This document shows, piece by piece, positions 34,964 to 44,381 of a stretch of DNA of 64,000 nt. Positions within the stretch are counted from its first letter, which is position 1, and the number at the start of each line of letters is the position of its first letter. The stretch is from IMG/VR virus record IMGVR_UViG_3300045012_000235, positions 32,001-96,000 of that record; one strand, 5' to 3'. Both the position numbers and the translations under genes were made by a program. The notes under the pieces were generated by a model. That model worked only from the letters and a program-made list of their open reading frames with translations. It made no database searches and had not been told where the DNA came from. Source of the stretch: a virus.

Positions 34964-35560
34964 GTGATGGACCTGTTCTTCTGCCCTGTCTGTGGACGCC
35001 GGCATTGTAAAGCGATCGGGACAGTATGCTCCGATTGTCGCATCCAATCGATAGCGCAACGATCGAACCGTTCCGGCGACTTGATACCTGGAAGATGCTT
35101 CTACTGTGATCGGGAAACTTTCGTCGGTAACGAGCATGTTGTCCCGCTCGCTCGAGGTGGGCCACATGAGTCGTGGAACATTGAGAAAGCCTGTCTTCTC
35201 TGCAACGGAGATAAGAGCGATCAGCTTCCGAGCGAGTGGTGCCCAACCCATGAAGAGGCGCTCACCATCGAACGGCGGGTGCCGACCATTTTTCCACGGA
35301 TGCGGCACGGACGAATTATTGGCGATCACGCTGATGGGTACGCTCGTATCCGTTCGTTGTGTGCCAACTTTATCTACACACTCCATACTGAAATAAGAGG
35401 GTTACCGAAGAGGAAATTGAACCAGGCGGTCACCGCGTGGCGTGCTGTTGAAAAGCTCCAGAGACACGTCAATGACGTGATTGTGAACGCGGAAGCTAAA
35501 GGAGAGAATGTGGAGAGGAAAGTAGAGTTCCGCCACCAAGTGGTCAGCAATCCGCCTTGA
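34964..35560 (+). CDS. HNH endonuclease
   Basis: CFYC....EHVVP..RGG....N...AC..CN..K. Confidence 0.85.
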   Translation: MMDLFFCPVCGRRHCKAIGTVCSDCRIQSIAQRSNRSGDLIPGRCFYCDRETFVGNEHVVPLARGGPHESWNIEKACLLCNGDKSDQLPSEWCPTHEEALTIERRVPTIFPRMRHGRIIGDHADGYARIRSLCANFIYTLHTEIRGLPKRKLNQAVTAWRAVEKLQRHVNDVIVNAEAKGENVERKVEFRHQVVSNPP

Positions 35561-35903
35561 CCATTGCCGCCAGCTCCGCACACCACCTCGCAACCGTCTG
35601 CTCCACCGACTCCCCGGCGAGTGGCCAAAGCACTACGTGAGGCACGCCCCAGGAGCGGCAGAACTCGGCCCAAACCCTCTGCTCGGCGGAGAGTCGACCG
35701 CTTCTAGACTTCAATTCGATTTCGACAACACGCCCACCACGAACGTACCCAACGAGGTCGCACTGCCCCTTGATGCCGTACCGAACGACCTGGCCCCCAT
35801 GCAGCGCGCGAGCGGCGCCGACGTTGCGGCGGAAAAGACGTATCTCAGGACAGAGACGAGGGGCGGCGAGAAGGAGCGCGTCTTGGGTGGTTAGCTCGCC
35901 CAT
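35544..35903 (-). CDS. VRR-NUC domain nuclease
   Basis: FRRNVG...G..G..DL.G......IELK...GRLS.EQ..W. Confidence 0.85.
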   Translation of the reverse strand: MGELTTQDALLLAAPRLCPEIRLFRRNVGAARALHGGQVVRYGIKGQCDLVGYVRGGRVVEIELKSRSGRLSAEQRVWAEFCRSWGVPHVVLWPLAGESVEQTVARWCAELAAMVKADC

Positions 35904-35910
35904 CGGAACA

Positions 35911-36144
35911 TCATAGGAGCCGACCACTACTGTCGATGATGCAGTAGCCGTTCTCCATGCAGACAGCTCGCATACGCTCCTTCGATCGAAACGGATTCTC
36001 TCTCGATCCATCACCCGTCTCGTCGGACCCGTTCTCTAGGTCGACGTAGAAAGAGAAGATATTTCGAGCGCATAAGCTTGAAGGGGCCTGAATCAATCTC
36101 GGGAGCGCCTCGATGAGGTCTCGCACACTCTGACGACTCACCAT
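35911..36144 (-). CDS. small protein with DUF1565-like YVD..GSD..GDGS...PF motif
   Basis: FYVDLENGSDETGDGSRENPFRS. Confidence 0.45.
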   Translation of the reverse strand: MVSRQSVRDLIEALPRLIQAPSSLCARNIFSFYVDLENGSDETGDGSRENPFRSKERMRAVCMENGYCIIDSSGRLL

Positions 36145-36953
36145 ATGAGGAGCTCCCCCACCGCACCGCGTTTTCCGCCATTGCTGTTGATGTTCCTTCG
36201 AGCTTGTACCGCGCGCATCTCGAACCCCCTGTAGAGCTCCCGCACAGCGGGGAGGTCTGCGTTCGAAAGTAGAACGTGAACGCCCGACGCCTTGAGTCGT
36301 CCGGCGAAATCGACCAAGCGTTCTTGATCGGCGATCCCGAATCCGGCCGCCGTGAAGCTAGTGAAATCACTGGTCCCACCCACCGGAACGTAGGGCGGGT
36401 CGAAGTACACGAAGTCGCCCGACCGGGCCGGCTCCGCCACAAAGGTGAAATCGGCCTGGACTAAATCCACCCCCTGAAGCGCTCGCGCGCAGGCGCGCAG
36501 ATTTGCCTCGTCGCAGACGGTGGGGTTCTTGTAGCTGCCGATCGGGACATTGAAACCGCCGGAACGGTTGACGCGGTAGAGGCCATTGAAGCCAGTCTTG
36601 TTGAGGTAGATCATCCGCGCAGCAAGAGCGGGGCCGGTCAAATCACTCCCCAGCCCGCGCACGTGATAGTAGTGCTTTGCAGAGTGCAGCCGAGCGTGGG
36701 CGTGTAGCGTTTTGATGACCTCCTCGACGTCGTCTCGAACAGCTCTGTAGGTGCCTACCAACTCGCCGTTGGCGTCGCCGAGTCGCGTACCGCCAACCGG
36801 AGAGAGGTCGAAGAAGACGGCTCCACCACCGAGGAACGGTTCGACGTAGCGGCCAAACTTCTCGGGCACATGCTTTCGGATCTCGGGTAGGAGCTGCCGC
36901 TTGCCGCCGACCCATTTCAGAAATGGTGTTGCCGGAGACGGTAGTGCGGTCAT
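36138..36953 (-). CDS. dam: Dam-like DNA adenine methyltransferase
   Basis: FLKWVGGK, EPFLGGGAVF, YLNKTGFNGLYRVN..G.FNVP.G, FDPPY. Confidence 0.92.
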   Translation of the reverse strand: MTALPSPATPFLKWVGGKRQLLPEIRKHVPEKFGRYVEPFLGGGAVFFDLSPVGGTRLGDANGELVGTYRAVRDDVEEVIKTLHAHARLHSAKHYYHVRGLGSDLTGPALAARMIYLNKTGFNGLYRVNRSGGFNVPIGSYKNPTVCDEANLRACARALQGVDLVQADFTFVAEPARSGDFVYFDPPYVPVGGTSDFTSFTAAGFGIADQERLVDFAGRLKASGVHVLLSNADLPAVRELYRGFEMRAVQARRNINSNGGKRGAVGELLIW

Positions 36954-37122
36954 CGGGTCTCCTTGCATCCGGTTTCGTTGCCGTTCGGCTTGTAGAATTT
37001 GCACTCACCACCCTCTGTCGGGATGACGCCGCACGTGTGGCAGTACGGACCTTCGGCGTCGGGGCCGTGGTCACAGTCGTCGACACCAACCTCCGCACCG
37101 CACGCGACGCAGTACAGCGCGC

Positions 37123-38829
37123 TCACTCGATTCCTTGTTCGCGCAGCCAATCGCCGAAGGGCGATTCACCCTCTTCTTGCTGTATCGTTGGGTCGTCTTC
37201 CCTCACCATCTGTTCCTCGAACACGACAGCCTCTTCGGTCGCCGTTTTCTTCTCCGCCTGCTCCTTCTTCTCCTTGCGGGTTAGGTTTCGTTCGTACGCC
37301 GCTTGCCAGTCCGAGTCGCTGGCGAACGACGCCTTGATGGCCTCACTCCATGCCCAGGGAGGCCAGGCGCCGTAGTGGTCCTTGTACTTGGCTGACGCGA
37401 AGCCTGGTTTGTAGCCCTTCCTGCGGGCGACCTGCACCATGTCGTCGAAGAACGATCGCCGCATCACCTCGGGTGTGGAGTTGCGTCGCACGAGCTGCTC
37501 GTGGGTCTCCTCGGGCGTCTTCGGTTGATCTTCCGGTCGGAACTCGTAGCCGCAGTAGGGGCAGAGTACACGACCAATCGGAACGTACGCGTAGCAACGC
37601 TTGCAGAGTTTGATTGGCTCCCGGTGCGCCATCCGGAACGCGCGATCTTTCAGCGACCAGTGCAAGTCCTCGTGCGGGAATCCATGCCGGGCGATGTTGT
37701 TGGCATGGTCAATGAGAAGCGGCGAAACGCTCGGGTGCTTTACGCAACCGCGCGGACAGCCTGGGTGCCAAGGTCGCAGGATTCGACCCACGGACTGGCG
37801 GTAGAGAACAAGCGACTGGGTCGGGCGGGCATGCACGACACACTTGGCGCTCGGAACGTCAATCCCTTCGAGCAGGACGTTGACGTTGGACACCGCCTCG
37901 AGCTCTCCGTCTCCGAGCGCCTTGACGATTCGTCGTCGTTCAGTCTCGGGCGTTGTACCGTCCAGGTGCGCGATTCGAACGCCTGAAGTCTGAAACCTCA
38001 GGCAGATGTCGAGAGAGTGCGCAATGCTGCTGGCGAAGATGAACGTTCGTCGGCGCGGCCCCTCGACGAAGCCAATGCCGCCGTCCGGCCTCGGATACAG
38101 GTGAGCGAGCTTCAGCCAGTGATCGAGCAGGTTACCAACGAGCGTTTGCTTGCGCATGATTTCGCTAAGCGCACCCTCGTCGTAGTCGCCCCCAATGATG
38201 CGGACGTTCGAGAGATCCGGCTGCTCGGGCGCCGTGTAGCAGTCGGGGGCTACAATGAAGTTGTCGTGGATGAGTTCTTCGTAGGTGCAGACGACCTCCA
38301 AACTCTCGAAGAGGCTGCCGAGTGGTCGGCCGTCGTAGCGGGTGGGAGTCGCGGTGAAGCCGAGGATGATCGATTGCCGGTACTCGTCGGCGTCGAAAAT
38401 GTTGTCGATCATCGAATCGCTGACCGCGCGATGCGCCTCGTCGATGAGCACGATGCCCGCCGGCGGCTTCTTTCGACGAGCGAGCGTTTGAATGGAGGCA
38501 ACCTGCACCGAGCAAGACGCGTCGGTGCGCTCGTCGTCGCCACGAATGACGCCGACGTTTGTGATCCCGAGCAGCGCGAGCTGGTCCACGCACTGATCGA
38601 TCAACTCCATCCGGTGTGCGACGAAAAGTACCGGAACGGTCGACGTGCGAATGATGCTCGCGATAAGGACCATCTTGCCGGCTGCCGTGGGGGCTACGAG
38701 CAAGATCTTTCGCTTGCCGTCGCGGATGCGGTCACGAAGCGTCTGGAGCGCGCGCGCCTGGTAGGGACGCAACTCGGGCGGCTTGACGTCGATGAGTGTG
38801 GGGCGGTCGAAGAGGGGAAGGGTGTTCAC
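37123..38829 (-). CDS. SF2 DEAH helicase with C-terminal Zn finger
   Basis: LRPYQ, APTAAGKM, IDEAH, FTATP.R, LLEGIDVP, QSVGRILR, CKRC..CPYC. Confidence 0.9.
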   Translation of the reverse strand: MNTLPLFDRPTLIDVKPPELRPYQARALQTLRDRIRDGKRKILLVAPTAAGKMVLIASIIRTSTVPVLFVAHRMELIDQCVDQLALLGITNVGVIRGDDERTDASCSVQVASIQTLARRKKPPAGIVLIDEAHRAVSDSMIDNIFDADEYRQSIILGFTATPTRYDGRPLGSLFESLEVVCTYEELIHDNFIVAPDCYTAPEQPDLSNVRIIGGDYDEGALSEIMRKQTLVGNLLDHWLKLAHLYPRPDGGIGFVEGPRRRTFIFASSIAHSLDICLRFQTSGVRIAHLDGTTPETERRRIVKALGDGELEAVSNVNVLLEGIDVPSAKCVVHARPTQSLVLYRQSVGRILRPWHPGCPRGCVKHPSVSPLLIDHANNIARHGFPHEDLHWSLKDRAFRMAHREPIKLCKRCYAYVPIGRVLCPYCGYEFRPEDQPKTPEETHEQLVRRNSTPEVMRRSFFDDMVQVARRKGYKPGFASAKYKDHYGAWPPWAWSEAIKASFASDSDWQAAYERNLTRKEKKEQAEKKTATEEAVVFEEQMVREDDPTIQQEEGESPFGDWLREQGIE

Positions 38830-39495: not shown

Positions 39496-40197
39496 ATGAC
39501 GGTGAGCGAAATCGCTCGAACCGAGATTCGGCAGATTGCCATTCTCGACACAGAAACCACATCGTTGGAGCCACCCCCGGTCGGCAAGATCATCGAGGTG
39601 GCGGTCATGCTCTACGATGTGAAGTTCGCGCAGCCTGTCGCTAGCTTCGCTAGCCTGATTCAGGCCGACTCGAACGAGGCGGAGCCCATCAACGGCATCC
39701 CGGCGGGAATGCTCGGTGCTGCGCGCACGGCAGACTTCGTGTGGCGCGCGGTCCAGTGGCTCATCGAGCCGGCGACCGTCATCATCGCGCATCGCGCTGA
39801 GTTCGATCGGCAGTTTTGTCCAGACCTCGGGAAGCCTTGGATCTGTTCCAAAACCGATATTCGTTGGGGTGATCGGGTACGTGGCGACCATCTTGTTCAG
39901 CTCGCGCTAGGGCTTGGACTCGGGGTCGCGAGCGCACACCGCGCGATGGCCGACGTCGACACGCTCGCGCGTATCCTGACGCGCGTCGCCGAGAAGGGTG
40001 GCGATCTTGAAGCGATGATCGTGCGCGCGATGCGACCAAAGAAGCTCTTCTACGCGCAGGTTTCGTACGAGAGACGACAGATTGCTAAGGATCACGGGTT
40101 TCTTTGGGATGAGGCCAAGCACGGCAAGAACTGGTACCGGTACATGCCGCCCGAGGACACGGGGGAGTTGCCGTTTCCGGTGAGGTTGGTGTCGTGA
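39496..40197 (+). CDS. DEDDh 3'-5' exonuclease (DnaQ-like)
   Basis: LDTETT, AHRAEFD, AHRAMAD; extra C-terminal VSYE..AK..GF.WD domain. Confidence 0.9.
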   Translation: MTVSEIARTEIRQIAILDTETTSLEPPPVGKIIEVAVMLYDVKFAQPVASFASLIQADSNEAEPINGIPAGMLGAARTADFVWRAVQWLIEPATVIIAHRAEFDRQFCPDLGKPWICSKTDIRWGDRVRGDHLVQLALGLGLGVASAHRAMADVDTLARILTRVAEKGGDLEAMIVRAMRPKKLFYAQVSYERRQIAKDHGFLWDEAKHGKNWYRYMPPEDTGELPFPVRLVS

Positions 40198-40568
40198 GCA
40201 ACGACCCTGACTTGATGAGACACGGCGGTAATCCAGAATCGATTGAGGCTCACGAATCAATCAAGGATTACAAGCAAAGGGTCAGGCTAGCCATCTATGC
40301 CGTCGCCAGAAGACGGGGGAGTACTGGAATCACTGCGGATGAAGTATCGGCTGAATGGGGATCGAGTCACAATCATGTAGCTCCAAGGATGACGGAGCTG
40401 AAAGCAGCCGGGTTGTTGGTTCCGACTCAAATTCGCAGGAAAACAAGAGCTGGTCGCTGGGCTCGTGTGTTGGTTATCAAGGGCGTGGAGACTTCGGAAG
40501 CCGGTCAGCCGGAGGACGATGGTGATGTACAGCGACTCGTCGCAGAGCATGTGAGTAACCATCGATGA
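40194..40568 (+). CDS. winged-helix DNA-binding protein
   Basis: GITADEV........PRMTELK..GLL....RKTR.GR.A.V; visibly lower GC than neighbours. Confidence 0.65.
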   Translation: MSNDPDLMRHGGNPESIEAHESIKDYKQRVRLAIYAVARRRGSTGITADEVSAEWGSSHNHVAPRMTELKAAGLLVPTQIRRKTRAGRWARVLVIKGVETSEAGQPEDDGDVQRLVAEHVSNHR

Positions 40569-41611
40569 AGGTCTTCGTCTGGGAAACCAAGACAACGAGC
40601 GAAGACATTGGTCCCGGCTCCACCTTCTGGAAGCGAACCACGCTCGATCCGCAGCTCTCGCTCTACATCCCTGCGATTCGAGCGATGGGGTACGACCCCC
40701 ACGGCTGCATTTACGATGCGCTCCGTAAGCCGGCGCAGTCTCCCGGGACCGTTCCGGTGCTCGACGACGACAGGCTCAAGATTGTGGTCGACGCAGCCGG
40801 TCAGCGTGTGCGTACCAAGGACGGCAAGAAATGGCGACAGACCGGCGACACCGAGGCCGGCTACGTACTTCAAACGCGACCCGAAACTCCAGAGGAGTAC
40901 GGCCAGCGCTGCCTAGAAGCCATCGCCGAGAACCCGGACAGGTACTACGCGCGGGGAGTGGTCGTGCGGCTGGAGGCCGACGAGCGAGAGGCGGCGGCCG
41001 ACAACTGGAACACGGCGGGGCAGATGCGGGAAGCGAAGCGACTCAACATCTACCCCAGGAATCCGGATTCGTGTATCTCGTGGTCGCGCGAGTGCGACTA
41101 CTTGAACGTGTGCGCCGGCATGGCGGCGATCGATGATCCTGTACTGTTCCAACACGAGGCGGCGCACGTCGAGCTGGATAACCTGTCGGACGACCTGAGT
41201 CTGCTCACGCAGTCCTCGATGCGGTCGTACCGATCCTGTCCGCGCAAGTTCTACTACCGGTACGTGCTGCGTCAGCGGCCGCTCAAGAAGGCCGAGACAC
41301 TGTCGACCGGCACAAGCATTCACAAAGCGCTCGACGTGTTCCGTCAAACAGGGGGCGATCTCGAGGCCGCCAAGAAAGCGCTCGTGACCGAGGATCTGTT
41401 CGTGCGCGCCAAGGAAGTAGCAATACTGACCGGCTACGCCGCGCGATGGAGCAAACCCACCGGGGTCGTCGCGATCGAGCATCAGTTCGATATCCCGCTC
41501 ATCAACCCCGAGACGGGGGCCGCCAGCCGAACATACAAGCTAGGCGGTAAGGTGGACGCGATCGTGGCCGCAGAGTCGGCTCAGGAACTGTTGAACCCAG
41601 CGACAGGATGA
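40565..41611 (+). CDS. Cas4/AddB-like PD-(D/E)XK nuclease, circularly permuted
   Basis: E7-x-K9 and Q30xxxY34 at the N-terminus; Cys170/177/183 mid-protein; canonical N-terminal S..RSCPRKFYY (Cys225), GTSIH, E305 and GKVD331 in the C-terminal third. Confidence 0.85.
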   Translation: MKVFVWETKTTSEDIGPGSTFWKRTTLDPQLSLYIPAIRAMGYDPHGCIYDALRKPAQSPGTVPVLDDDRLKIVVDAAGQRVRTKDGKKWRQTGDTEAGYVLQTRPETPEEYGQRCLEAIAENPDRYYARGVVVRLEADEREAAADNWNTAGQMREAKRLNIYPRNPDSCISWSRECDYLNVCAGMAAIDDPVLFQHEAAHVELDNLSDDLSLLTQSSMRSYRSCPRKFYYRYVLRQRPLKKAETLSTGTSIHKALDVFRQTGGDLEAAKKALVTEDLFVRAKEVAILTGYAARWSKPTGVVAIEHQFDIPLINPETGAASRTYKLGGKVDAIVAAESAQELLNPATG

Positions 41612-42537
41612 AAACAATGACCATTGATCTGAAACGAATCACCGAAGGCAAGGTTGCGCGCGAGCCGCGTGTTCTCATCTACTCGGCGGACGGCGTAGGC
41701 AAGACCCGGTTCGCTGCCGGCGCTCCAGACCCGTTCTTCATCGACGTCAACCGTGGCAGCCTCCAGTACGACGTGAAGCGGGTCATTCCGGAGACCTGGA
41801 GCGAAGTGATCGAATGGGTGGGTGCCGTAGAGCAGGGTCTCGTCAAATGCAAGACGCTGGTTATCGACTCCATCACCGATCTCGAGTACATGGGAAACGC
41901 TGAGTTCTTCCCCAACACGACCATCGACAAATGGGACGGGGGTTACGGGCGCGGAGAGGGTTACGCGCTCACGCGTTGGCGAGAGCTGCTCGCAGCGCTG
42001 GAGCGCACATGGGCCGCAGGCAAAGCGATCGTTCTTGTCGGGCACATGACCGTGAAACGGTTCGAGGACCCGACGGGCCCAGGGTTCGAGCGCTACGAAG
42101 TTGCCGCCAAACAGAAGCTCGCCGGATCGCTCAGGCAGTGGGTGGACTATGTGCTCTTCGCCAACATCGAGACGGTGCAGCAGAAGGTCGCCGGGGGAGA
42201 CGTCAAGATGGTCACCAACGGCGTGCGCTGGCTGCACACGCAACGCTCTCCCGCGTTCGACGCCAAGAGTCGAGGGACAACGCTCTTTCCCGAGAGGGTG
42301 CTCCTCTCGTGGGAGGAGTTCGCCAAGGCGAGGGCTGCCGATACAGCCAGACTCGCGGAGCTGCAGACCGAGATCGACGCCATGCTCAAGGAGATCGGTG
42401 ACGACAAGCTTGTGGCCGGCGTCAAGGAGTACATGCGTTCGTACCCCAACATGATCGTCGAGGCCCGCAACCGGGTGTCGGCGAGGCTTGAAGAGTTCCG
42501 GGCGACGGCGAAGCCGCCCGTGCAGAAGAGTGCGTAA
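41608..42537 (+). CDS. AAA_24 / Sak4-like ssDNA-annealing ATPase
   Basis: LIYSADGVGKT, LVIDSI, GYGRG, VLVGH, AKSR. Confidence 0.85.
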   Translation: MKTMTIDLKRITEGKVAREPRVLIYSADGVGKTRFAAGAPDPFFIDVNRGSLQYDVKRVIPETWSEVIEWVGAVEQGLVKCKTLVIDSITDLEYMGNAEFFPNTTIDKWDGGYGRGEGYALTRWRELLAALERTWAAGKAIVLVGHMTVKRFEDPTGPGFERYEVAAKQKLAGSLRQWVDYVLFANIETVQQKVAGGDVKMVTNGVRWLHTQRSPAFDAKSRGTTLFPERVLLSWEEFAKARAADTARLAELQTEIDAMLKEIGDDKLVAGVKEYMRSYPNMIVEARNRVSARLEEFRATAKPPVQKSA

Positions 42538-42561: not shown

Positions 42562-43041
42562 ATGGTTACCCCCGGAAATTACAAGGCACGCGGCATCAAG
42601 AGCAGCGTGCAGCTCGGCGAGACCGAGCGCGGCAACCTCCAGATCGGAATCGATCTGGACATCAAGAACGGATCGGAGTCGCTCGGGCAGATGACGACGT
42701 TCCTCTACTTCACGCCCGAGGCGGCACCCTACAGCTACGAGCGGCTGCGCGCGCTCGGTTGGAAGGGTCAGGGGCCCGACGACATCGACAACATGGACGG
42801 TATCGACGCCAACGAGGTCGATGTTCGTGTCACGGTGCCAGAGCAGTACAAGGACTCGAGCGGTGCGATCAAGATGGGTCAGAGCAAGGTCGAGATTCAG
42901 ACCGGTGGGGTAGGGAAGGTCACCCTCGCCAAGACGGTTGATGGGGCCACCTTCAAGGCGCGACTCAAGGCGATTGGTGGTGCTAGCGGCGGTGGTGCTC
43001 CGGCGGGTGGTGGTGGTTCTGGGCCGAAGCCGCCCTTCTGA
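42562..43041 (+). CDS. phage single-stranded DNA-binding protein (DUF669-like)
   Basis: PGNYKA start, beta-rich core, Gly-rich tail ending PPF; follows the Sak4-like gene. Confidence 0.65.
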   Translation: MVTPGNYKARGIKSSVQLGETERGNLQIGIDLDIKNGSESLGQMTTFLYFTPEAAPYSYERLRALGWKGQGPDDIDNMDGIDANEVDVRVTVPEQYKDSSGAIKMGQSKVEIQTGGVGKVTLAKTVDGATFKARLKAIGGASGGGAPAGGGGSGPKPPF

Positions 43042-44381
43042 TGAAGATCGATCTGTCGTCCGACCAGCGCGAGGTCTACACCGCGATCTCGCGCTGGTCG
43101 CTGGGCAAGAGCGGGGGCGGCGTACTTGGGTCGACGCTGACGTGTGGGGGCCTCGCGGGATCTGGCAAGAGCACGCTCATTGGCGTGTTCGCCGCAGAGA
43201 CGAAATTGCTCGTCGCGTACGTCTGCTTTACCGGTCGCGCCGCTTCAAACTTGCGTCGCAAGCTCGAGGCGGCTGACGTTGAGACGACGCGCAAGATGCT
43301 GACCGACGACGAGCGGTCATTGACGGGTCGCTGGGCCCATCTCTTCTACGGTCGGCACGATCCAGAGGAGACGATGCCGTTCTGCGACACGATTCATCGC
43401 CTGCTTTATCGGCCCATCATCGACAGTCGGACCGAGGAGCTTCGTGGCTGGGAACGACGTAGCCAGCTTGATCGCTCGTACGACCTCATCGTGGTGGACG
43501 AGGCGTCCATGATTAGCGACACGGTCCTCGAAGATCTTCGCGCGCACGGCGTGCGGGTTCTTGCGGTCGGCGACCACGGTCAGCTTCCGCCCGTTCGGGG
43601 CAGTAGTTCGCTGATGGTCGCCCCCGATCTGCGGCTCGAGAAGATTCATCGGCAGGCCGAGTCGAGTCCCATCATCCGGATGGCGCATGCGCTGCGCACA
43701 ACGGGTCGGTTCGATCCGGCGCTTGCCGATGGTAACGCGGTGCAGGTGCTGTCGAAGTACGAGTACACGAGGGTGCTGAAAGAGTCGGTGGCTACGGCCT
43801 CGAGCGAGGAGTCGTTGAACGCGCACGGACCGACTGCGCCACTCGACGTCGCGGTCGTCTGTTGGAAGCACGTCACCCGCGTCTCGATCAACCGCACCGT
43901 CCGCGAGATGCTTGGCCACCAGGGCAAGCTGCCGCAGGTAGGGGAGCCGGTCATGGCGCTCCGAAACTACCCGCCGGTCTACAACGGGATGCGAGGCTTG
44001 CTTCAGCGAGACGCGGAACAGTTCTCGGACTCCTGGTGGTTGCTCAACGTGGACATCGACTTCCCAGACGAAGGGGTCAACGTCGAGAATCGAAACGTCT
44101 GCCGCGATCAATTTCATCGGCTGCCGCGCCGGCGCGGTGAGCAGTCGACGTTCGGTTCGGTCGACGAGTTGAAGGAGGCTGGCATCAAGGTTGATTCGAT
44201 GGGTGAGGCGGGCCACCTCTACGACTTCGGCTATGCGATGACCGTCCACAAGTCGCAGGGATCGCAATTCGAGCACGTCGTCGTGTGCGTGGATTGGAAC
44301 GAGGGCGATACCGACGACGCGCGGCGGCTTGCGTACACGGCGGTCACGCGCGCCAGCGGTCGGTTGACGGTGCTGCGTTGA
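43041..44381 (+). CDS. RecD/Dda-like SF1B helicase
   Basis: GLAGSGKS, FTGRAA, TIHRLLY, VDEASM, VGDHGQLPPV, IHRQ, YAMTVHKSQGSQF, YTAVTRA. Confidence 0.93.
   Translation: MKIDLSSDQREVYTAISRWSLGKSGGGVLGSTLTCGGLAGSGKSTLIGVFAAETKLLVAYVCFTGRAASNLRRKLEAADVETTRKMLTDDERSLTGRWAHLFYGRHDPEETMPFCDTIHRLLYRPIIDSRTEELRGWERRSQLDRSYDLIVVDEASMISDTVLEDLRAHGVRVLAVGDHGQLPPVRGSSSLMVAPDLRLEKIHRQAESSPIIRMAHALRTTGRFDPALADGNAVQVLSKYEYTRVLKESVATASSEESLNAHGPTAPLDVAVVCWKHVTRVSINRTVREMLGHQGKLPQVGEPVMALRNYPPVYNGMRGLLQRDAEQFSDSWWLLNVDIDFPDEGVNVENRNVCRDQFHRLPRRRGEQSTFGSVDELKEAGIKVDSMGEAGHLYDFGYAMTVHKSQGSQFEHVVVCVDWNEGDTDDARRLAYTAVTRASGRLTVLR

Follow-up and report, generated by a model that had tools for sequence, protein, structure and literature searches.

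The gene and its parts

The gene described here lies in a window of 64,000 nucleotides, the whole stretch of soil-phage DNA that was analysed (positions 32001-96000 of IMG/VR record IMGVR_UViG_3300045012_000235). Coordinates below are window positions. The host record comprises 124,600 bases with direct terminal repeats and is rated complete. The gene begins at base 72565 of that record, and so sits mid-genome rather than at an assembly end. Its open reading frame (ORF), 40565-41611 on the plus strand, runs through 348 amino acids without a stop and overlaps both of its neighbors through ATGA. The original prediction, made from the letters alone, proposed that this ORF encodes a Cas4/AddB-type nuclease with a naturally circularly permuted chain: opened between catalytic motifs II and III, and closed where the old amino and carboxyl termini meet. 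All of the residues that it named (E7, K9, Q30, Y34, C170, C177, C183, C225, H253, E305, and D331) are found at the positions it gave them.

Three modules describe this protein and its relatives: module a, the Cys/His helices; module b, the Glu strand through the Asp strand; and module c, which holds ExK, QxxxY, and three cysteines (CCC). The canonical order is a-b-c (abc). The window gene reads c-a-b (cab), and a second permutant reads b-c-a (bca). The gene and its parts are as follows, with the evidence for each.

40565..41611, plus strand: whole nuclease gene, 348 residues, module order c-a-b (uninterrupted ORF; PF12705; phrog_1218; hidden Markov models, HMMs, of the modules)
40565..41164, plus strand: module c, residues 1-200, equivalent to the carboxyl-terminal part of canonical relatives, containing the strand of motif III, the QxxxY helix, and the cluster of three cysteines
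40583..40591, plus strand: motif III, E7-T-K9, in the first strand, residues 2-11 (sequence, alignment, AlphaFold2 model)
40646..40666, plus strand: QxxxY helix motif of RecB/Cas4-type nucleases, D28-P-Q30-L-S-L-Y34 (invariant in the alignment of 107 homologs; Q and Y kept in all three orders)
40751..40873, plus strand: beta-rich insert in module c, residues ~63-103 (HMM splitting; short strands at residues 62-106 of the AlphaFold2 model)
41072..41113, plus strand: Cys cluster C170-x6-C177-x5-C183, which supplies three of the four presumed ligands of the 4Fe-4S cluster
41174..41200, plus strand: joint, residues ~204-212, DNLSDDLSL, where the old carboxyl-terminal tail (..HVEL) meets the old amino terminus (LTQSS..)
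41189..41380, plus strand: module a, residues 209-272, equivalent to the amino-terminal part of canonical relatives (Pfam profile positions 2 to ~60)
41237-41239, plus strand: fourth Cys, C225, in module a (invariant)
41321-41323, plus strand: conserved His, H253, in module a (invariant)
41381..41584, plus strand: module b, residues 273-340, with the core helix, the E305 strand, and the D331 strand (alignment, AlphaFold2 model)
41477-41479, plus strand: E305, in a strand of module b
41555-41557, plus strand: motif II Asp, D331, in a strand of module b

Two halves in swapped order

Homology of the window protein to the PDDEXK_1 family is not in doubt. Pfam profile PF12705 matches it at E 1.3e-13 (51.9 bits; gathering cut-off, 22). 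The best stretch places residues 214-334 on profile positions 2-132 of 247, so that the amino-terminal half of the profile sits in the carboxyl-terminal half of the protein. The match to phrog_1218 ('exonuclease'; E 7.7e-22) is swapped in the same way. The canonical relative P0111 gives one collinear PDDEXK_1 stretch, residues 7-320 on profile positions 3-246.

Comparison with P0111 locates both the cut and the joint. By BLAST, window residues 2-196 match P0111 139-333 (56% identity, E 5e-81), and window residues 211-334 match P0111 3-132 (45% identity, E 7e-31). Aligned in swapped order, residues 2-204 of the window protein (P0001 in our set) fall on P0111 139-342, and residues 211-334 fall on 3-132. 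The six P0111 residues left between the two blocks form the loop of the hairpin whose arms are the Asp strand of motif II and the ExK strand of motif III. The new amino terminus therefore lies six residues before E7, and the new carboxyl terminus lies 17 residues after D331. (The head before motif III has a median length of six residues, interquartile range 6-7, over 131 cab proteins.) Along the window protein, the motifs thus run ExK, QxxxY, CCC, C, H, E, D, an order that is not collinear with the PDDEXK_1 family. The halves map onto canonical relatives as the original prediction had it. Its acidic linker of about 30 residues did not survive: most of that segment is conserved old carboxyl-terminal tail, and the new joint takes up about 8-10 residues.

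Predicted structure

The AlphaFold2 model of the window protein, built with alignment A1 (107 same-order homologs), has a predicted local distance difference test score (pLDDT) of 91.8 and a predicted template modelling score (pTM) of 0.83. For canonical P0111, modelled with alignment A2 (113 abc sequences), the values are 96.7 and 0.91. The helix and strand lists of the two models are cyclic rotations of one another. Secondary-structure states assigned by DSSP agree at 98% over 327 residues aligned in swapped order, whereas collinear controls aligned just 13 and 7 residues; within module c, the states are identical at all 203 aligned residues (100%). A short amino-terminal strand (4-6) and a carboxyl-terminal strand (332-334) are both present in the canonical model, beside the Cys sites. 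This modelled arrangement fits the earlier supposition that the old termini lie close together. In the permuted model, the matching elements (213-214 and 195-197) flank the joint.

A Foldseek search of the PDB with the canonical model returned 22 matches at E<=0.001, among them AdnA/AdnB, AddB, ACE1, RecE, the Cas4 protein SSO0001, and RecB. With the permuted model, VIA-align placed residues 203-340 on the amino-terminal parts of ACE1, AdnB, and 3l0a, and residues 1-193 on the carboxyl-terminal parts of Cas4 and 3k93. These half-domain rows are interleaved with cytochrome P450 rows of equal Z; they are only consistent with the swap and do not prove it.

Conserved residues and an authentic gene

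Residue conservation was read from A1 and from a module alignment of 263 three-module proteins. Invariant in A1 are Q30, Y34, C170, C177, C183, C225, H253, E305, and D331; E7 and K9 are conserved at 90% or more, and D28 is conserved as well (invariant or at least 90%). Among the cab proteins, the non-gap residues in the E7 column are 124 Glu and one Asp, and the K9 column is Lys in 125 of 125. Every cab protein with a residue at the Q30, Y34, and K9 columns keeps it. D331 is present in 131/131 cab, 118/118 abc, and 14/14 bca proteins, and the four cysteines in 130-131/131, 117-118/118, and 14/14, respectively. The C170, C177, and C183 columns taken by themselves hold Cys in 130-131/131 cab, 118/118 abc, and 14/14 bca proteins. 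D331, E305, and H253 together with the four cysteines are kept in 130-131 of the 131 cab proteins, and the proteins that keep these residues reach down to about 45-50% identity. The catalytic motifs (motif I Glu, motif II Asp, motif III ExK, and QxxxY) are conserved across all three orders (131 cab, 118 abc, and 14 bca proteins). The claim that the catalytic and Cys residues are intact is borne out.

The beta-rich insert of module c (about 40 residues, ..KIVVDAAGQRVRTKDGKKWRQTGD..) is optional in every module order. It is absent, with the module c HMM matching in two stretches, from 41 of 272 proteins: 21/131 cab, 17/118 abc, and 3/14 bca.

Logan contigs of four runs were mapped to positions 40300-41900. 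One of the runs, X1, is possibly that of the source sample. Contig X5, from another sample and study, spans 40373-41761, the whole ORF included, with no differences. Contig X8, of 16,113 bases and from a third study, spans 40565-41900 with 53 differences, without an indel, and without a joint; within the ORF, 31 of the 36 differences listed fall at codon position 3. Protein P0002 is 98% identical to the window protein (6 of 348 residues differ), and its longest contig is also 16,113 bases. The permutation is genuine and conserved. To judge from the sequence record, the permuted nuclease is very probably functional.

Immediately upstream of 40565, the X8 sequence becomes unrelated to the window, so that the start of the nuclease gene is a mosaic boundary.

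Three module orders in one family

Relatives were gathered in two ways: a word-indexed protein search, which gave 699 matches; and an exhaustive search of representatives clustered at 50% identity, which gave 2,857 matches at E<=0.001. The best 120 of the 699 and the best 150 of the 2,857 were used. Classification by HMMs of modules a, b, and c, built from A1, covered 272 proteins.

All 272 proteins: cab 131, abc 118, bca 14, bc only 5, fragments 4
Best 120 of 699 matches: cab 110, abc 8, bca 1, truncated 1
Best 150 of 2,857 representatives: cab 21, abc 108, bca 13, bc only 5, c only 3

The original prediction called for homologs with the same order, and these amount to 131 of the 272; the 110 among the best 120 matches come from JGI, ENA, Logan, and NCBI sources. 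Viral contigs supplied 16 further cab, 36 bca, and 20 abc loci, several of them near-copies of one another. Contigs from metagenome-assembled genomes supplied two cab loci (Gemmatimonadales and Myxococcales bins), one bca locus (an Anaeromyxobacter bin), and ten abc loci. Among 50,697 deposited phage genomes, two match at E<=1e-5, those of the Tunturiibacter phages Tunturi_1 and Tunturi_2, and both are of the bca type. Tunturi_2 gp56 (PP885685.1, 3749-4786), annotated only as 'exonuclease', has the order bca and is followed by genes for a Sak4-like annealase and a single-stranded DNA-binding protein (SSB). Tunturi_2 is a cultured phage of Acidobacteriota and offers a culturable bca system.

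Five proteins (P0143, P0168, P0210, P0219, and P0265) consist of modules b and c with no detectable module a. By their sequence, neither the fourth Cys nor the conserved His would be present in them.

Five other relatives (P0122, P0123, P0124, P0234, and P0235) have the canonical order and about 700 residues, with an intein (Intein_splicing plus LAGLIDADG_3). In P0122 and P0124, the intein directly follows the motif III catalytic Lys (..EHK|C...HN|T..), a site that differs from the permutation cut.

Order changes and origin

The order a-b-c is taken as ancestral, because all solved relatives and the Pfam profile have it. Two trees were built. In a FastTree analysis of the concatenated module alignment, thinned from 263 to 168 rows (<72% identity), the order labels require 17 changes. 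In an IQ-TREE analysis (LG+C20, quick) of 88 hand-picked rows, they require 15: five for cab, at least two of them forced by starred branches; and ten for bca, at least five of them so forced. The approximately unbiased test rejects a single bca clade (delta log-likelihood 247, p 2.4e-39). It does not reject a single cab clade (delta log-likelihood 48, p 0.145), and several origins are accordingly not claimed for cab. The order thus changed repeatedly for bca in any case, and possibly for cab, which the maximum-likelihood tree splits into up to five groups.

The closest pairs of different order are 59-65% identical, and evenly so over the three modules. P0161 (bca) and P0159 (abc) share 64, 68, and 64% per module, and P0109 (cab) and P0106 (abc) share 66, 64, and 64%. 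Such evenness argues against mosaics. Median linker lengths between modules c and a are 13 residues (cab) and 9 residues (bca), not far from the median of 17.5 residues that head and tail together have in canonical abc proteins. This fits a head-to-tail, in-frame fusion of two gene copies from which both ends were then lost. The rearranged genes would have arisen in this way: in-frame tandem duplication, followed by loss of the two ends.

Comparison with known nucleases

The nearest canonical proteins are phage exonucleases P0111, P0106, and P0121 (PF12705, PHROG 1218), which are 52-53% identical to the window protein overall and 56-63% identical over the part from ExK to the cysteines. They share with it the catalytic residues, the four cysteines, the beta-rich insert, the predicted secondary structure, and the downstream Sak4-like gene. 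They differ in order: theirs is a-b-c, collinear with Pfam, whereas the window protein has the order c-a-b and begins and ends within the motif II/III hairpin. The bca permutant (P0120; Tunturi_2 gp56) belongs to the same family and has the same residues, joining of termini, and Sak4-like neighbor as the window gene. Its cut, however, falls between modules a and b, leaving the catalytic hairpin intact and the four cysteines contiguous near the carboxyl terminus.

More distant are AddB, AdnA, and AdnB; Cas4 (SSO0001 and the Cas4-Cas1-Cas2 complexes); ACE1; and RecE. Like the window protein, they have a PD-(D/E)XK core with a QxxxY helix, and they match the model of its canonical sister at Foldseek E-values from 8e-8 to 1e-3. 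In AddB, AdnB, Cas4, and ACE1, a 4Fe-4S cluster is bound by one amino-terminal and three carboxyl-terminal cysteines. All solved relatives are collinear a-b-c, whereas the permuted model fits them only one half at a time, with the halves swapped and at the level of noise (Foldseek E>=0.34).

Assignment as a CRISPR Cas4 equivalog was rejected: TIGR00372 scores 20.5 bits against a cut-off of 65, and only residues 216-271 align, on model positions 3-58. The neighboring genes (Sak4-like annealase, Dda-like helicase, DnaQ-like exonuclease) include no cas gene, and the locus is not a CRISPR-cas adaptation module.

Permutation within the wider superfamily has a precedent. According to the available text of Steczkiewicz et al. 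2012 (PMC3424549), the Hef/XPF-type nuclease (pdb 1j22) is a natural circular permutation of the PD-(D/E)XK fold that involves the first helix only. That nuclease differs from the window protein in its family, in lacking an Fe-S staple, and in a cut that falls elsewhere than between the catalytic strands. Full-text literature searches found no description of a permuted Cas4/PDDEXK_1 nuclease, although such members might appear in the alignments that supplement PMC3424549 and PMC5704561; in the main text of 'Phylogenomics of Cas4 family nucleases', the string 'permut' is absent. The original prediction's statement that it knew of no described case stands for the PDDEXK_1 family and for the motif II/III cut, and does not extend to the superfamily.

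Interpretation and alternatives

Taken together, these results make it highly likely that the window gene encodes a functional phage PDDEXK_1 (Cas4/AddB/RecB-like) exonuclease that is naturally circularly permuted. The old carboxyl and amino termini, both carrying presumed 4Fe-4S ligands, are fused through the short joint, and the break in the chain falls in the beta-hairpin formed by the Asp and ExK strands. Fold and active site (D331, E305, E7, K9, Q30, Y34, and H253) would be as in canonical relatives, with C225 and C170/C177/C183 holding the presumed 4Fe-4S cluster. The enzyme would resect DNA ends in a metal-dependent manner, yielding single-stranded DNA (ssDNA) for the translationally coupled Sak4-like annealase. 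Resection and annealing would presumably serve phage recombination, replication, or repair.

Several results weigh against this interpretation. Foldseek searches of the PDB with the permuted model gave no match at E<=0.001 (the best is AddB 4cej_B, E 0.34), and VIA-align with the same model gave none at Z>=5, the half-domain matches standing at Z 2.7-3.6, the noise level. A profile of the permuted family (107 proteins) found nothing relevant among PDB sequences; its sole row is 3no3_A, at E 0.87. The original prediction had expected each half to find its part of the Pfam profile. The carboxyl-terminal half does so, on the amino-terminal half of the profile. Residues 1-200 alone go unrecognized, with no PDDEXK_1 in Pfam, no nuclease family in PHROGs, and chance-level rows only. 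The identity of module c rests on the canonical relatives (56% to P0111 139-333). The distances among D331, E7, and K9 are ones that we infer, and Fe-S binding and nuclease activity are expected from the conserved residues. The proposed origin, finally, is without direct support: no tandem a-b-c-a-b-c intermediate was found among longer relatives (three matches, all canonical with an intein), and module remnants beside the gene were found in 0 of 91 loci (domain E<=0.05, filters off).

Those last two absences count in favor of a different history, in which the new order came from gene fission followed by re-fusion rather than from tandem duplication and truncation. This alternative touches the origin only. 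Five of the 272 family proteins do have modules b and c without module a, and one fragment-like protein of 142 residues sits on a contig of 95,881 bases. A search for split genes among shorter proteins gave 12 matches, however, and 11 of them lie on contigs shorter than 3 kb and are probably truncated. All 91 loci carry the modules in one frame segment, and the linker between modules c and a is near the canonical head plus tail, as a fusion of two copies predicts. Fission and re-fusion is thus an unlikely route, though the most credible of the alternatives considered here.

A second possibility is that activity requires a strand-swapped oligomer, in which the amino-terminal ExK strand of each chain would pair with another chain's Asp strand, forming the active site in trans. 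RecE and some Cas4 proteins are oligomeric, and the new termini of the window protein do lie on two adjacent catalytic strands. Domain swapping of core elements is known in the superfamily, from T7 endonuclease I (available text of PMC3424549). As a monomer, however, AlphaFold2 packs the whole chain (pTM 0.83), and it places strands 2-11 and 320-335 as in the canonical model. An obligatory oligomer is improbable.

A cut inside the catalytic hairpin could be expected to damage the active site, and the permuted protein might then be a decayed or non-catalytic relic, such as a structural or DNA-binding partner of Sak4. This is very improbable. The 131 cab proteins keep their catalytic and Cys residues, differences from a close variant fall mainly at third codon positions (31/36), and the confident model shares the secondary structure of the canonical form.

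The least credible alternative, a chimera or other artefact of assembly (from contig ends or a tandem repeat joined wrongly, for example) in a record of metagenomic origin on which contigs rather than raw reads were mapped, has a negligible probability and is refuted in practice by independent contigs and same-order homologs: X5 is not marked as a possible source sample and agrees throughout, diverged X8 crosses the whole ORF, the order is common to 110 of the best 120 of 699 matches and to 16 other viral contigs, and the gene lies mid-genome.

The preferred reading, a functional permuted exonuclease, raises a broader proposal: that this nuclease family is a natural hot spot for circular permutation on account of the Fe-S staple between amino and carboxyl termini, with repeated changes of order. 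This is tentative, and we place it somewhat short of an even chance. All three rotations of the three-module ring (abc, bca, and cab) are present as genes whose sequences mark them as conserved and under selection. If so, the cab rotation would put the chain ends on both catalytic strands without loss of the active site.

Implications

To our knowledge, few natural circular permutants have their chain opened between two catalytic strands in the core of the enzyme. This one is abundant and conserved, and it occurs alongside canonical sisters and a second rotation. The family thereby offers matched natural sets for asking how topology bears on folding, on loading of the 4Fe-4S cluster, and on the exonuclease mechanism. 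What stands out most in the finding is that all three rotations occur across the family. A cofactor that ties both termini may license permutation. If the hot-spot proposal is true, the family constitutes a natural series relating chain topology to folding, Fe-S insertion, and catalysis, and profile and structure searches that depend on order would systematically under-annotate such proteins. A blind spot in annotation is already visible: the permuted model has 0 Foldseek matches and the canonical model 22; Pfam covers part of the protein; and cultured-phage records of the bca form are labelled just 'exonuclease'. Sak4-type modules also attract interest for recombineering and as a means by which phages repair breaks inflicted by defence systems (available text of PMC13687109).

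Neighboring genes and the recombination module

The nuclease gene lies within a run of genes on the same strand.

39496..40197, plus strand: DnaQ-like 3'-5' exonuclease domain protein (phrog_192, E 2.6e-23), upstream in cab-type loci
40194..40568, plus strand: 124-residue gene of phrog_1123 (function unknown), whose stop codon shares ATGA with the start codon of the nuclease gene, catcgATGAagg at 40565
41608..42537, plus strand: Sak4-like ssDNA annealing protein (phrog_124, E 4.9e-38; PF13479 AAA_24, E 9e-34); its start overlaps the nuclease stop (ATGA), acaggATGAaaa at 41608
42562..43041, plus strand: 159-residue gene with a Gly-rich tail and a ..PKPPF end, which follows the Sak4-like gene in many related loci
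43041..44381, plus strand: Dda-like (RecD-type) helicase (phrog_325, E 2.1e-65)

Of 75 related loci, 71 carry a Sak4-like gene downstream of the nuclease gene and in the same orientation (cab, 16/16; abc, 19/20; bca, 35/36); the exceptions are fragments or sit at the end of a contig. In phage Phi47, helicase, Cas4-domain exonuclease, DUF669, and Sak4-like proteins interact (available text of PMC13687109). Together, the downstream gene and the Phi47 module suggest that the window protein is the end-resecting nuclease of a Sak4-type module, a role whose chemistry we infer. The original prediction had described a Sak4-like/SSB-like/helicase module. The Sak4-like protein and the Dda-like helicase are upheld by their PHROG matches, whereas the SSB-like member found no support: the 159-residue ORF at 42562-43041 matches no PHROG or Pfam family and shows no BLAST similarity to the Tunturi_2 SSB. 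This ORF may nonetheless be the ssDNA-binding or DUF669-like partner of the module.

A divergent block on the minus strand, 35544-38829, encodes a VRR-NUC/Holliday-resolvase-like nuclease, a Dam-type DNA methyltransferase, and a phrog_16 helicase; the block recurs beside cab-type loci.

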